Program-made: the position numbers and the translations under genes
Part shown: in pieces, positions 3,513 to 52,637 of the stretch
Layout of the letters: the number at the start of each line of letters is the position of its first letter
How positions within the stretch are numbered: the first letter of the stretch is position 1
The notes under the pieces: generated by a model
What the model was told of the DNA's origin: nothing
The model's input: only the letters and a program-made list of their open reading frames with translations
Database searches by the model: none
NCBI GenBank assembly: GCA_964344655.1
Contig: CAYFOF010000002.1
Span: 56,768 to 120,767 of the forward strand
DNA from: Candidatus Woesearchaeota archaeon
GTDB taxonomy: Archaea > Nanobdellota > Nanobdellia > SCGC-AAA011-G17 > PNOQ01
Length of the DNA: 64,000 bases
Direction: 5' to 3'

Positions 3513-4013
3513 ATGAAAAATTTCTTAATCACAATCTTAATAATTCTCTCAATTTTAAATCTAACTTTCTTAATAGAAATTTCAAAAAACGAAGATTTAA
3601 GCAATTTTTACTATAAAGGAGAAGAACTTCCCGAAGAATACACAAACAAAGAAAAAATCCACATGCAAGAAGTTAAAGACTTAGTAAATGCATCATTAAT
3701 ATTTAATTTATTATTATTCTCAACATTTCTAATAAAACAAAAAACAAATACAAAACAAATAGGAAAATATCTAATCTTAACCTCATTATTTTTATTCGTA
3801 GCAGCAATATTCTTCCAAAAATTCTTTCACAATTTCCATTTAATATTTTTCAACGGAGATAATTGGCTTCTTCCAGCATCTTCAAAATTAATACAAACAT
3901 ATCCATTAAGCTACTTTAGAAATATATTCTTAATAATTAACACAATTTATCTAATAATTGGAATTACTCTATACAAAAAACTATACATTTTCTTCCAAAG
4001 AGCTATCAGATAA
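3513..4013 (+). CDS. integral membrane protein
   Basis: 166-aa ORF with several hydrophobic helices. No family recognised. Confidence 0.35.
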   Translation: MKNFLITILIILSILNLTFLIEISKNEDLSNFYYKGEELPEEYTNKEKIHMQEVKDLVNASLIFNLLLFSTFLIKQKTNTKQIGKYLILTSLFLFVAAIFFQKFFHNFHLIFFNGDNWLLPASSKLIQTYPLSYFRNIFLIINTIYLIIGITLYKKLYIFFQRAIR

Positions 4014-7819: not shown

Positions 7820-8569
7820 ATGATAGATCCTGTAGCTATAAATCTGGGAACAATCCAAATACGTTGGTATGGAATAATAATGGCTTTTGGATTTCTATTA
7901 GCATATTTCATTTCTCAAAAACTAGCCAAGTATAGAAATATTTCAAAACAAGATATGTCTGATTATTTCATTTACTTCATAATCTCTTCAATAGTTGGAG
8001 CAAGACTTTGGGCAGTAATATTAAACTATCAAAATTACACAAACATATTAGAAATATTTGCCGTTTGGAATGGCGGAATGGCAATCCACGGGGGAATTGC
8101 TGGAGCAGCTCTTGCAACATATTATTTCTCAAAAAAAAGAAATATTCATTTTTATGACATTGCAGATATAATGGTTATCCCAACAGCATTAGGTTTAGCT
8201 TTAGGGAGAATTGGAAATTTCATAAATCAAGAATTTTACGGCAAACCAACTTCATTACCGTGGGGAGTATACTTCGATAACATTGAAGGAAAAAGACATC
8301 CCTCACAAATTTATGAATCTCTAAAAAATTTATTAATTTTTGGAATAACCTTAAAACTATTCTTATTTAAGAAATTAAAAAGAGGAACAATATTTTGGAC
8401 ATTTATTTTATTATATTCATTACTAAGATTTTCTGTAGAATTTTTCAAAGACATGCCAACATTCCTAAACTTAACTTATGGACAAATAATCTCAATACCG
8501 TTAATTATAATTTCAATAATAATGTTAAAAAGAATAGCAAATCCTACGCAACATTTAAATAACAATTAA
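7820..8569 (+). CDS. lgt: prolipoprotein diacylglyceryl transferase (Lgt)
   Basis: Lgt signature GLALGRIGNFINQEFYGKPTSLPWGVYFD and RHPSQIYE, matching E. coli Lgt GRIGNFINGELWGR and HPSQLYE. The protein has multiple TM helices and is 249 aa. Confidence 0.8.
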   Translation: MIDPVAINLGTIQIRWYGIIMAFGFLLAYFISQKLAKYRNISKQDMSDYFIYFIISSIVGARLWAVILNYQNYTNILEIFAVWNGGMAIHGGIAGAALATYYFSKKRNIHFYDIADIMVIPTALGLALGRIGNFINQEFYGKPTSLPWGVYFDNIEGKRHPSQIYESLKNLLIFGITLKLFLFKKLKRGTIFWTFILLYSLLRFSVEFFKDMPTFLNLTYGQIISIPLIIISIIMLKRIANPTQHLNNN

Positions 8570-9661: not shown

Positions 9662-9670
9662 TTTTATAAA
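9662..9670 (+). promoter_or_regulatory. TATA box (TTTTATAAA) about 27 nt upstream of tRNA-Tyr
   Basis: Archaeal box-A consensus at the expected distance. Confidence 0.5.
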
Positions 9671-9695: not shown

Positions 9696-9815
9696 CCCGT
9701 CATAGCTCAACGGTAGAGCGTTCGGCTGTAGATATTGTTTGACTAGGTATTAACCTTGGATGATAAACAATTAGCCGTACCCGGAAGGTTCCCGGTTCAA
9801 ATCCGGGTGACGGGA
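9696..9815 (+). tRNA. tRNA-Tyr: tRNA-Tyr (GTA) with a roughly 48-nt intron at the canonical 37/38 position
   Basis: Acceptor CCCGTCA/TGACGGG gives the archaeal Tyr C1:G72 pair with A73. D-arm GCTC-AACGGTA-GAGC. Anticodon stem TTCGG/CCGGA with loop CTGTAG. An insert (9732-9779) forms its own helix (ATTGTTT/AAACAAT). T-arm CCCGG-TTCAAAT-CCGGG. Confidence 0.6.
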
Positions 9816-9968
9816 TATATTCCTTTTTAAACCCCTCCTCGAAAAAACAAAACATTTATAAATGAGTGGATTGCCCTAAAATTCAACTAGATAAATGCCC
9901 CTCTCTAAAATGGTTCAATTATAAACATTCAAAAGTTAATGAACTAGAGAGTGCTATGCCCATAAAAT

Positions 9969-10042
9969 GCCCGGATGGTGTAGTTCGGTTAGCATAAAGC
10001 CCTGTCGCGGCTTTGACCCGGGTTCAAATCCCGGTTCGGGCG
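9969..10042 (+). tRNA. tRNA-Asp: tRNA-Asp (GTC)
   Basis: Acceptor GCCCGGA/TTCGGGC. Anticodon stem-loop AAGCC-CTGTCGC-GGCTT. T-arm CCGGG-TTCAAAT-CCCGG. Length 74 nt. Confidence 0.8.
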
Positions 10043-10045
10043 TGG

Positions 10046-10142
10046 GGACCGGTAGCTCAGCTTGGTAGAGCACTTGGCTTTTAACCAAGGGGTCGCGGGT
10101 TCAAATCAAAGCAAAAACTTTGTGAAAGTCCCGTCCGGTCCA
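10046..10142 (+). tRNA. tRNA-Lys: tRNA-Lys (TTT) with a 23-nt non-canonical intron in the T-arm
   Basis: Acceptor GGACCGG/CCGGTCC with A73. D-arm GCTC-AGCTTGGTA-GAGC. Anticodon stem-loop CTTGG-CTTTTAA-CCAAG. T-stem GCGGG + TTCAAAT, then a 23-nt insert (10107-10129, caaagcaaaaactttgtgaaagt, internal hairpin CAAAG/CTTTG), then CCCGT. Confidence 0.55.
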
Positions 10143-10162
10143 CTTCATAATACAGACAAAAA

Positions 10163-10405
10163 ATGACAAAAGAATTTGACATCAAGAAACACTCTTTAGT
10201 ACCTGAGCACACTAAACTTACAGAAGAAGAGGCTAAAAAAATTCTAGACGAATTTAATATAACAAAAGACGAAATTCCTAAAATTTTGATTTCTGATGCT
10301 GCAATTCAAGATTTGTCCCCAGAATACGGAGACGTAATAAAAATTACAAGGGGCAGTCAAACAAACACACAAACAATATTCTATAGGGTGGTCGTTAATG
10401 GTTAA
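10163..10405 (+). CDS. rpoH: DNA-directed RNA polymerase subunit H (Rpb5 homolog)
   Basis: 80-aa ORF. Motifs HSLVPEHTKLTEEE...GDVIKITRGSQT are typical of RpoH. It overlaps the rpoB'' start by 8 nt. Confidence 0.85.
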   Translation: MTKEFDIKKHSLVPEHTKLTEEEAKKILDEFNITKDEIPKILISDAAIQDLSPEYGDVIKITRGSQTNTQTIFYRVVVNG

Positions 10406-51318: not shown

Positions 51319-52437
51319 TTACAACTTAGATAAGAATTTCTGAACTTCTTTTTTAGCTTTAACTCTTTTTTTCTGATGTTCAACCAAAAACTTTTGAAGC
51401 TTCTCAATAGTATATTTCTTCAATTCCCCAGTTAATAACTCTCCTTTCTTATAAGAATCATGAATTTCTTGTAATTTTTTATCATCTTCTTCTAATCCAT
51501 ATTTCAATAACTGAAAAGAAACATCAATATCCGGATTTCCACCTTTTTTTCTATGTTCTTCTAATGTTTTTTGACCACCAGAGAAAGCAAATTTCTTAAT
51601 TTTTTTAGCAGCAACTTCTGGAGAATCTGTTAAAGCAATATAAGAATTTTCATCAGAACTGCTCATCTTCCCACCCTTCAATCCAGGTAAAAACATATGA
51701 CATGTAGAACTCAAAGGCATAAATTTATGCCCTGGAAACTTATACGCAACATCTCTAGCTAATCTTAAATGTGGATCTTGATCAATTCCAACTGGAACAA
51801 TAACTGGCAAAGCTTTTCCTTCAAACTCTTTTAATTGAGGATGTAACATATCTGCTGCTTGCAATAAAGCAGAAGATAATTTAGCAGGAGAAATATCTCC
51901 ATAAATTGCTTTTACTTGGTTGAATGTTGTATGTCTTCCCAACATATTTGCTAAAGAATAATAAGCACTAGATTTTACACCATCTTTATCTCTTGAAGAT
52001 TGAAAATAAAAATCACATTTCTTTAAATCTAATCCCAAAGCAACATAATTAGTTAAATATTCTTCAATAGCAACTTTCTTTAATTCTTCCATATCTGGCA
52101 TTCTAGAATTATAAGCTTCAACATCAGCCACAGCAACATAAACTTTTGCTCCTAATTTTTGATACATAATAATTTGATCAGCAACAATTTTATGCCCAAA
52201 ATGAAATTTCCCACTAGGCATCAATCCAGTCATCATCACAAAGGGTTTTTTCTTTTCAATAGATTCATTTATCTTATCAAAATCCCTATGACAATAAATT
52301 ATTCCTCTCCTAAACAACAAAAAATCATTCAACTTCTTAGGAACTGTCTTAAAAGGTTTTAATCCAAATTCTTTTATTATTTTACTATAATTTATATCCC
52401 CTTTAATTTCCCAAGGAGTTACACTAGATTTAACCAT
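51319..52437 (-). CDS. trpS: tryptophan--tRNA ligase (archaeal/eukaryotic type)
   Basis: HIGH-like PSGKFHFGH and KMSKS-like GGKMSSS. The block VPVGIDQDPHLRLARDVA matches eukaryotic/archaeal TrpRS AIDQDPYFR. Confidence 0.75.
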   Translation of the reverse strand: MVKSSVTPWEIKGDINYSKIIKEFGLKPFKTVPKKLNDFLLFRRGIIYCHRDFDKINESIEKKKPFVMMTGLMPSGKFHFGHKIVADQIIMYQKLGAKVYVAVADVEAYNSRMPDMEELKKVAIEEYLTNYVALGLDLKKCDFYFQSSRDKDGVKSSAYYSLANMLGRHTTFNQVKAIYGDISPAKLSSALLQAADMLHPQLKEFEGKALPVIVPVGIDQDPHLRLARDVAYKFPGHKFMPLSSTCHMFLPGLKGGKMSSSDENSYIALTDSPEVAAKKIKKFAFSGGQKTLEEHRKKGGNPDIDVSFQLLKYGLEEDDKKLQEIHDSYKKGELLTGELKKYTIEKLQKFLVEHQKKRVKAKKEVQKFLSKL

Positions 52438-52519: not shown

Positions 52520-52593
52520 GGGGACGTAGTATAAGCTGGTTAGTATGGGAGGCTCCAACCCTCCAGATGGGGGTTCAAATCCCTCCGTCCTCA
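52520..52593 (+). tRNA. tRNA-Trp: tRNA-Trp (CCA), intronless
   Basis: Acceptor GGGGACG/CGTCCTC with A73. Anticodon stem-loop GGAGG-CTCCAAC-CCTCC. T-arm GGGGG-TTCAAAT-CCCTC. The D-arm pairing is imperfect. Confidence 0.6.
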
Positions 52594-52637
52594 CTCATTT
52601 TACAAACACTTAAAAAACACAATAATTTCCCATTTTT

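Follow-up and report, generated by a model that had tools for sequence, protein, structure and literature searches.

The tRNA cluster described here lies in a 64,000-nt stretch of DNA (the window) with a GC content of about 31%, and occupies positions 9696–10142, where direct reading and the Rfam tRNA model identify three genes on the + strand: tRNA-Tyr(GUA), tRNA-Asp(GUC) and tRNA-Lys(UUU). The features of the cluster and its surroundings are as follows:

9663–9670, + strand: candidate archaeal TATA box TTTATAAA, from direct reading; its putative role is suggested by the usual spacing of archaeal promoters
9696–9731, + strand: tRNA-Tyr(GUA) 5′ exon, positions 1–37, ending CUGUAG (Rfam, 56.4 bits)
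9732–9779, + strand: predicted tRNA-Tyr intron, 48 nt, at the canonical position 37/38 (BHB scan, orthologues)
9734–9771, + strand: structured core of the tRNA-Tyr intron (conservation in 62 unique sequences, covariation of the flanking helices)
9772–9777, + strand: 3′ segment UAGCCG of the tRNA-Tyr intron, complementary to tRNA positions 29–34 at 9724–9729 (RNAalifold)
9780–9815, + strand: tRNA-Tyr 3′ exon, positions 38–73, with C38 and discriminator A73 (Rfam, BHB scan, splice product)
9969–10042, + strand: tRNA-Asp(GUC), intronless (ARAGORN and Rfam, 58.9 bits)
10046–10105, + strand: tRNA-Lys(UUU) 5′ exon, positions 1–59, with the T-loop end UUCAAA (Rfam, splice product, BHB scan)
10106–10128, + strand: predicted tRNA-Lys intron, 23 nt, at position 59/60 (BHB scan, shuffles, orthologues)
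10129–10142, + strand: tRNA-Lys 3′ exon with U60, the 3′ T-stem strand, the 3′ acceptor strand and discriminator A (splice product, BHB scan)
10163–10405, + strand: rpoH (Rpb5 C-terminal domain), which opens the archaeal RNA polymerase operon (Pfam PF01191, E = 4e-25)

The candidate TATA box is situated about 30 nt 5′ of the tRNA-Tyr start. The tRNA-Lys gene as a whole (10046–10142) is recognized by its acceptor strands GGACCGG/CCGGTCC and its anticodon loop CTTTTAA, and CCA is absent from the encoded 3′ ends of both tRNA-Tyr and tRNA-Lys. As originally predicted, tRNA-Asp sits between the other two genes and is separated from tRNA-Lys by a spacer of 3 nt (TGG, 10043–10045); tRNA-Asp and tRNA-Lys can reasonably be taken to be co-transcribed, because a spacer of this length is too short for a promoter. 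The rpoH gene, which begins 20 nt past tRNA-Lys and served as our synteny anchor, is followed by a split rpoB, rpoA′/A″, L30e, NusA, S12 and S7, with the polymerase genes in the order rpoH-B″-B′-A′-A″.

Standard gene finders deal poorly with the two interrupted genes. With default settings, tRNA-Asp is the sole gene of the cluster called by ARAGORN, and both interrupted genes are missed. The Rfam tRNA model aligns tRNA-Tyr over 9696–9815 (56.4 bits) with an insertion of about 51 nt placed in the anticodon loop; for tRNA-Lys, a forced local alignment covers 10046–10103 alone, i.e., the first 58 nt, and scores 35.5 bits. A search for additional cryptic T-arms, whether or not interrupted by an insert, gave nothing beyond the five known tRNAs, and an E-value scan with Rfam added nothing credible. 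A group I intron is excluded for both inserts, which at 48 and 23 nt compare with a core of more than 200 nt with P1–P9, and neither matches an Rfam intron family.

The inserts were analyzed with a scan for BHB motifs in which each strand contributes a helix, a 4-bp central helix, a 3-nt bulge and a second helix, with the cut placed after the second base of the bulge. This cleavage rule is well established and is consistent with the need for excision to leave loops of 7 nt. In tRNA-Lys, where TTCAAA(T) precedes the insert and the 3′ T-stem strand CCCGT follows it, the motif is a strict 3-4-3 hBHBh′, gcggg-UUCA-(AA↓U)-caaag...cuuug-UGAA-(AG↓U)-cccgu, with the arrow marking the cut, a central helix H of 4/4 pairs and outer and inner helices h and h′ of 5 bp each. 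The outer helix is the T-stem itself (GCGGG/CCCGU), the central helix joins T-loop bases 54–57 (UUCA, 10100–10103) to the intron sequence UGAA (10123–10126), the inner helix is the intron hairpin CAAAG/CUUUG (10107–10111/10118–10122), and the bulges are AA↓U and AG↓U. Excision of the intron leaves a 74-nt RNA that ARAGORN calls tRNA-Lys(ttt). The 23-nt insert in the T-arm had previously been placed at 10107–10129 and the BHB motif predicts 10106–10128; the two coordinates yield one identical mature sequence, as the same T occurs at each junction. The intron is non-canonical in position, as first proposed, and lies in the T-loop between 59 and 60.

Loose BHB-like motifs with h and h′ of at least 4 bp occur 37 times on the + strand and 259 times on the − strand of the window. 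An AT-rich window is thus full of chance motifs of the loose kind, and it is therefore the register with the tRNA, and not the motif alone, that constitutes the evidence: when the tRNA-Lys insert was shuffled 200,000 times, a strict BHB in exact register came up just 6 times. In the thermodynamic fold of pre-tRNA-Lys the acceptor stem, the T-stem and the intron hairpin are formed, and the central helix is energetically neutral (−34.5 kcal/mol with it, −34.8 kcal/mol without it; minimum free energy −37.7 kcal/mol). This absence of a preference for the central helix is counted against splicing as the main reading.

The orthologues of tRNA-Lys allow the insert to be followed across relatives, which were collected with an RpoB″ search of GTDB contigs representing one genome per species. 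The search returned 38 loci with up to 95% identity, every one of them from a Woesearchaeota or Nanoarchaeota (DPANN) metagenome-assembled genome (MAG), and the closest relatives of the window by RpoB″ are Woesearchaeota MAGs, nearest among them JABHMJ01 (SI037S2_bin65). A tRNA-Lys(UUU) gene lies directly 5′ of rpoH in 28 of the 38 loci, which with the window gives 29 syntenic genes. Nineteen of these (the window and 18 others) have an intron at 59/60, ranging in length from 12 to 31 nt, with a central helix of 4/4 pairs in 14 cases and 3/4 in five, and with the 3′ end of the intron kept as UGAA-AG↓U. The inner stems vary in sequence yet remain complementary (CAAAG/CTTTG, CAAACA/TGTTTG, CAC/GTG, ATGTGTTTC/GAAATGCGT, AGGTATTC/GAGTATCT and ACG/CGT). 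Some motifs among the relatives are relaxed, for example those of the 11-nt intron in locus L019 and of the 12-nt intron in locus L023, the latter being devoid of an inner helix. Two other intron sites are found in the same gene: one near 30/31 with introns of 11–56 nt (loci L012, L019, L020, L022 and L036), and one just 3′ of the anticodon (L018, L025–L027, L030, L034 and L036).

The remaining 10 of the 29 orthologues have no insert at 59/60, and the most informative is L007, which carries the same tRNA-Lys gene in uninterrupted form and scores 72.2 bits, against 35.5 bits for the interrupted genes. Its sequence differs by 1 nt from the predicted spliced tRNA-Lys of the window, and what sets it apart from L008 is precisely the 31-nt intron predicted there; throughout L001–L010 the tRNA-Lys exons are identical or nearly so. 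From these comparisons it follows that the insert is a precisely bounded and evolutionarily maintained element rather than a sign of gene decay. That the tRNA-Lys gene might be a pseudogene, or that its insert might never be removed, so that the gene is inactivated or encodes an expanded T-arm, is a suspicion naturally raised by a gene that standard tools miss or align as a 35.5-bit fragment. We nevertheless consider it very improbable, given exons that are the same, or almost so, in loci with RpoB″ identities of 69–95%, an insert that diverges freely while its BHB is kept, the rarity by chance of a strict in-register motif, and a position directly 5′ of rpoH that is kept in 29 loci. There is likewise a vanishingly small chance that the inserts are artefacts of assembly or binning; all close relatives are MAGs and the window is most likely metagenome-assembled as well, but many assemblies made independently in different studies share this architecture.

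Published examples already exist of introns at 59/60 and of disrupted tRNA genes in DPANN archaea, and the tRNA-Lys and tRNA-Tyr genes described here are a further case. In ARMAN-2 (Ca. Micrarchaeum, DPANN), pre-tRNA-Cys(GCA) has a 13-nt hBH intron at 59/60 that is cleaved in vitro by the organism's own endonuclease, and pre-tRNA-Pro(GGG) has introns at 53/54 and 59/60 that form a strict hBHBh′ (PMC3239211). The present intron shares with these the T-loop site, the superphylum and the class of motif, and the ARMAN-2 tRNA-Pro likewise builds a strict BHB on the T-stem; the differences are that the tRNA is tRNA-Lys, the host a member of the Woesearchaeota and the intron 23 nt long. The endonuclease of ARMAN-2, examined in vitro, is the three-unit ε2 enzyme. 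Thermoproteales and other Crenarchaeota also have tRNA introns that are multiple and non-canonical (Sugahara et al.; reviewed in PMC4033280). There, too, short BHB introns occur at many positions, with up to three per gene and with lineage-specific gain and loss, and their counterpart here is the set of three alternative tRNA-Lys sites among the relatives; those hosts, however, belong to TACK and have (αβ)2 endonucleases, while ours is a low-GC member of the DPANN. Finally, the permuted tRNAs of Thermofilum pendens and Cyanidioschyzon merolae have a BHB junction at 59/60 (PMC3218864), and thus share with tRNA-Lys a T-loop junction formed via BHB, but they are circularly permuted whereas the exons are collinear here.

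In tRNA-Tyr, direct reading shows C1:G72, A73 and the helix ATTGTTT/AAACAAT as originally predicted, together with the loop CTGTAG. Its insertion of about 48 nt after position 37 agrees with the Rfam placement in the anticodon loop, and comparison of orthologues supports an intron at 37/38, 38/39 being the other candidate junction. Splicing at 37/38 would yield a 72-nt RNA that is called tRNA-Tyr(gta). Among nine syntenic orthologues CTGTAG is invariant, and the last two bases of the intron vary (TA, TT, TC and AA). The BHB is imperfect. Its outer helix is the 5-bp anticodon stem, and its central helix has 3/4 pairs (C32–G, U33×C, G34–C and U35·G), with the mismatch of U33 to C or U kept among the orthologues. 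The bulges are AG↓A and UA↓C in the window and NN↓C among orthologues, and the inner helix consists of a single U–A pair, one bulged pyrimidine and then 7–8 bp. A relaxed motif of this kind arises in 3.6% of shuffles and is weak on its own terms, and the case for tRNA-Tyr rests on the comparison of orthologues: when the specified structure is imposed on the nine sequences, 91.6% of the cells are paired and 14 pairs show double changes, a level that none of 500 shuffles attained. Covariation of the intron helices is confirmed in a larger metagenome set. Taken with the BHB scan and the restored cloverleaves, the comparison of orthologues thus upholds the original proposal that both tRNA-Tyr and tRNA-Lys contain introns.

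A different identity for the first gene is returned by ARAGORN when its intron search is switched on (option -i), namely tRNA-Asn(gtt) with a 48-nt intron at 35/36 (9730–9777), and splicing at these sites also produces a valid 72-nt cloverleaf, one with A37. We hold tRNA-Asn(GUU) to be extremely unlikely. The combination of C1:G72 with A73 is the identity set of tRNA-Tyr and speaks against tRNA-Asn, C1 being required by TyrRS (PMC3491384); no in-register BHB forms at 35/36 in the scan; and the bases that the tRNA-Asn model assigns to positions 36–38 read TAC, TTA, TCC, AAC or ATC among the orthologues (TA, TT, TC, AA or AT at 36–37), which would make the anticodon GTT in some and GTA in others, with the CTGTAG of the 5′ exon invariant. 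The ARAGORN call is thus ruled out by identity elements and by its inconsistency among orthologues, and we retain tRNA-Tyr(GUA) with an intron at 37/38. Like the canonical 37/38 introns of archaeal and eukaryotic tRNA-Tyr(GUA), this intron resides in the same tRNA at the same position, and its 3′ part pairs with the anticodon loop; unlike them, it has a mismatch at U33, a K-turn-like loop and a 6-nt strand complementary to positions 29–34.

The last of these features gives rise to an alternative pairing. In RNAalifold, the intron sequence Y-A-G-C-Y-G forms a slipped helix with positions 29–34 in all nine orthologues (9/9), and RNAfold prefers the slipped helix as well; folding of the window sequence puts the slipped conformer about 7 kcal/mol below the canonical BHB one. 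This lower energy and the U33 mismatch count against the main reading of tRNA-Tyr. The predicted slipped helix competes with the anticodon stem of tRNA-Tyr, and the 3′ cut site is common to both conformers. Formation of a BHB on the slipped helix was considered and rejected, as it would give an anticodon loop of 8 nt; the canonical register is therefore the likely substrate for splicing of tRNA-Tyr.

The core of the intron is formed by the helix ATTGTTT/AAACAAT (9734–9740/9765–9771) and an apical hairpin (9743–9758), which are separated by an asymmetric K-turn-like loop with GA (9741–9742) opposite GAUGAU (9759–9764). To describe its variation, more than 120 metagenome loci were retrieved using a search pattern in which nothing but exon bases and AGCYG was fixed, 73 hits were aligned to a covariance model derived from the nine orthologues, and the 62 unique intron-containing sequences among them were counted. 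The consensus of the loop is G-A on the 5′ strand and R-A-U-G-A-A on the 3′ strand; the A, U, G and A of the 3′ strand are present in 60, 61, 62 and 61 of the 62 sequences, respectively, and the G and A of the 5′ strand in 52 and 55. Both helices beside the loop covary heavily, including the closing pair of the C helix. The loop contains a C-box-like RUGA and a D-box-like NGA with the polarity seen in archaeal C′/D′ and H/ACA K-turns, and has one extra base after the GA of the bulged strand when compared with a textbook K-turn (C helix, 3-nt bulge, tandem sheared G·A/A·G pairs, NC helix).

No Rfam snoRNA or sRNA family matches in the cluster region, and two types of guide RNA were tried and rejected. 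A box C/D guide is expected to have C/D and C′/D′ pairs and a guide of 10–12 nt, complementary to its target, upstream of D or D′; here there is one box-like pair only, and the stretch that precedes the D-like GA is base-paired within the intron. In an H/ACA guide the ACA box lies about 14 nt from the target U (rule quoted in PMC2651775); the intron has no ACA box and no lower stem, its 'pocket' is one-sided, and the bases 14–16 nt downstream are AAG or AGG from the 3′ exon. The nearest precedent is provided by the box C/D guide RNAs that reside within tRNA introns, in tRNA-Trp of Euryarchaeota and in tRNA-Met of Nanoarchaeum equitans (PMC3491384), with which the present intron shares a C-box-like RUGA, a D-box-like NGA and a K-turn-type loop inside a tRNA intron; it differs from them in having a single box pair, no N+5 complementarity between guide and target, and a length of only 48 nt.

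It is nonetheless possible, though on balance improbable, that the tRNA-Tyr intron is more than a spacer, and that a putative K-turn bound by L7Ae or a paralogue, together with the 3′ strand on positions 29–34, exposes U35–A36 in a bulge; the intron would then direct or gate a modification, for example pseudouridine-35, or control the timing of BHB formation. Such a function would be an addition to the splicing of the intron as the best explanation, not a replacement for it. It is favored by the maintenance of G-A and R-A-U-G-A-A in 62 unique introns with covarying flanking helices, by the occurrence of the slipped helix in every syntenic orthologue, and by an invariant C/U-A just 5′ of GCYG that the slipped helix accounts for and the canonical BHB does not. 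In addition, the K-turn recalls the upper half of archaeal H/ACA guides in its polarity and 6-bp spacing (PMC2651775), and the box C/D RNAs within tRNA-Trp and tRNA-Met introns provide a precedent for a functional intron (PMC3491384). Against it stand the loop, which exceeds the textbook K-turn by one base, the lack of an ACA box, a lower stem, a second box pair or a guide that matches an exon target, and the composition of the metagenome set, which was chosen with a pattern that fixed AGCYG. A literature search found no description of such a K-turn-like element in tRNA-Tyr introns, and the K-turn-like core and the strand that pairs with 29–34 may be new. In its most extended form, which we put forward as a speculation with low odds, the 48-nt intron would belong to a widespread and apparently undescribed class of structured DPANN tRNA-Tyr introns that recruit L7Ae, clamp positions 29–34 and present U35–A36 in a bulge 6 bp below the K-turn, acting in cis on pseudouridine-35 or another modification of the anticodon loop, or on the timing of splicing via a conformational switch.

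With regard to the cluster as a whole, we conclude with high confidence that it is a tRNA cluster of a Woesearchaeota (DPANN) archaeon in which two of the three genes carry archaeal introns that are spliced by proteins. Our analysis shows the motifs, cloverleaves that are restored exactly on excision, and conservation with covariation among relatives; the chemistry of cleavage and ligation, the enzymes involved and the order of processing are inferred. Both interrupted genes would be transcribed as precursors, with tRNA-Asp and tRNA-Lys almost certainly on one transcript. Pre-tRNA-Lys would fold with the T-stem as outer helix, a 4-bp central helix of U54–A57 with the intron sequence UGAA, and the intron hairpin as inner helix; with U54–A57 paired to the intron, the T-loop could attain neither its mature fold nor its contact with the D-loop until the 23-nt intron is gone. 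Pre-tRNA-Tyr would carry its 48-nt intron at the canonical 37/38 position with an imperfect central helix and a conserved structured core. In each 3-nt bulge EndA would cut between the second and third bases, and the exons would then be joined by an RtcB-type ligase.

Neither an EndA gene nor a gene for an RtcB-type ligase was found within the window in a Pfam search of its 77 ORFs and, for EndA, a phmmer search, the latter giving no match to a Methanocaldococcus jannaschii EndA query and counting as a lead only; this weighs against the main reading. It had been proposed that the intron position in tRNA-Lys requires an endonuclease of relaxed specificity. Taken alone, the tRNA-Lys motif calls for no such enzyme, being a strict 3-4-3 hBHBh′ of the kind accepted even by strict enzymes; α4 and α2 endonucleases process strict 3-4-3 motifs, and relaxed motifs need (αβ)2 or ε2 enzymes (PMC3239211). 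It is instead the mismatched motif of tRNA-Tyr, together with the relaxed motifs among relatives, that suggests a tolerant endonuclease in this lineage. The assignment of the host to an archaeal lineage with non-canonical tRNA introns is in line with its position in the Woesearchaeota, since disrupted tRNA genes have been documented in DPANN lineages that include a Woesearchaeote, along with an α4-type EndA with an L3 loop (PMC5829648).

The cluster has immediate consequences for annotation. With default settings ARAGORN finds neither interrupted gene, and with the intron search on it mislabels tRNA-Tyr as tRNA-Asn; DPANN genomes will therefore appear to be without tRNA-Lys(UUU) and tRNA-Tyr unless a BHB-aware search is used. 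The syntenic tRNA-Lys genes 5′ of rpoH either have or lack an intron, with three alternative sites across the Woesearchaeota, and form a natural series that is useful for studying the gain and loss of archaeal tRNA introns and the breadth of specificity needed from DPANN endonucleases. The K-turn-like core of the tRNA-Tyr intron and its strand clamping the anticodon stem are the one element that, if functional, might lead to something new.

The tRNA-Tyr intron contains an asymmetric K-turn-like loop at 9741-9764 of the window, in which GA lies opposite R-A-U-G-A-A; the loop is conserved, and its flanking helices covary. Nine syntenic orthologues carry it, as do 62 unique sequences from metagenomes, the comparison covering A1, A2 and loci L039-L158. 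Box C/D or H/ACA identity was considered for this element, which falls outside the definitions of both.

At the 3' end of the same intron, the motif UAGCCG (9772-9777) is complementary to tRNA-Tyr positions 29-34 (9724-9729), and the anticodon stem has a competitor in the form of a slipped helix, 9772-9777/9724-9729. All nine orthologues form this helix (9/9), and in computed folding it is favored over the canonical bulge-helix-bulge (BHB) fold by about 7 kcal/mol. The invariant Y-A preceding GCYG in the intron is accounted for by the slipped helix only. One relative, L012, has a tRNA-Tyr orthologue of 152 nt (1371-1522), a length that indicates an additional 5' insertion, in the D-arm, besides the anticodon-loop intron.

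Further variation is seen in the neighboring tRNA genes. In tRNA-Lys(UUU), the same single gene upstream of rpoH, relatives use two further intron sites, one at about 30/31 in the 5' strand of the anticodon stem (introns of 11-56 nt) and one immediately 3' of the anticodon, where the introns measure 12-20 nt; the loci with introns at these sites are L012, L018-L020, L022, L025-L027, L030, L034 and L036. A single gene has up to two introns, and some of the introns have relaxed motifs, e.g., those of L019 (11 nt) and L023 (12 nt), in which the inner helix is absent. The tRNA located 5' of tRNA-Lys, i.e., at the tRNA-Asp position, is intronless in the window, whereas it is 86-93 nt long in L013 (2547-2635), L019 (2523-2608) and L028 (2547-2639), which suggests from length that these copies also contain introns.

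Elsewhere in the window, a synthetase gene adjoins a tRNA gene:
51319-52437, minus strand, class I Trp/Tyr-type aminoacyl-tRNA synthetase
52520-52594, tRNA-Trp(CCA), intronless
In many Euryarchaeota, tRNA-Trp carries a C/D-box intron. The region 26000-64000 shows a persistent, strongly negative GC skew (-0.2 to -0.46), in agreement with the mostly minus-strand genes there. Bacterial-type cell-envelope genes are also found in this archaeal genome, encoding the prolipoprotein diacylglyceryl transferase Lgt (7820-8569; E = 2e-74), a Lit-like lipoprotein transacylase domain (3513-4013) and a YkuD L,D-transpeptidase domain (25461-26477).

Only 20 nt separate the 3' end of tRNA-Lys from the start of rpoH (10142-10163), and rpoH lies directly downstream of tRNA-Lys in related loci as well. 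Since no obvious TATA box fits this 20-nt gap, the tRNAs and the RNA polymerase operon may share a transcript, or the operon may have a promoter that overlaps the tRNA gene.
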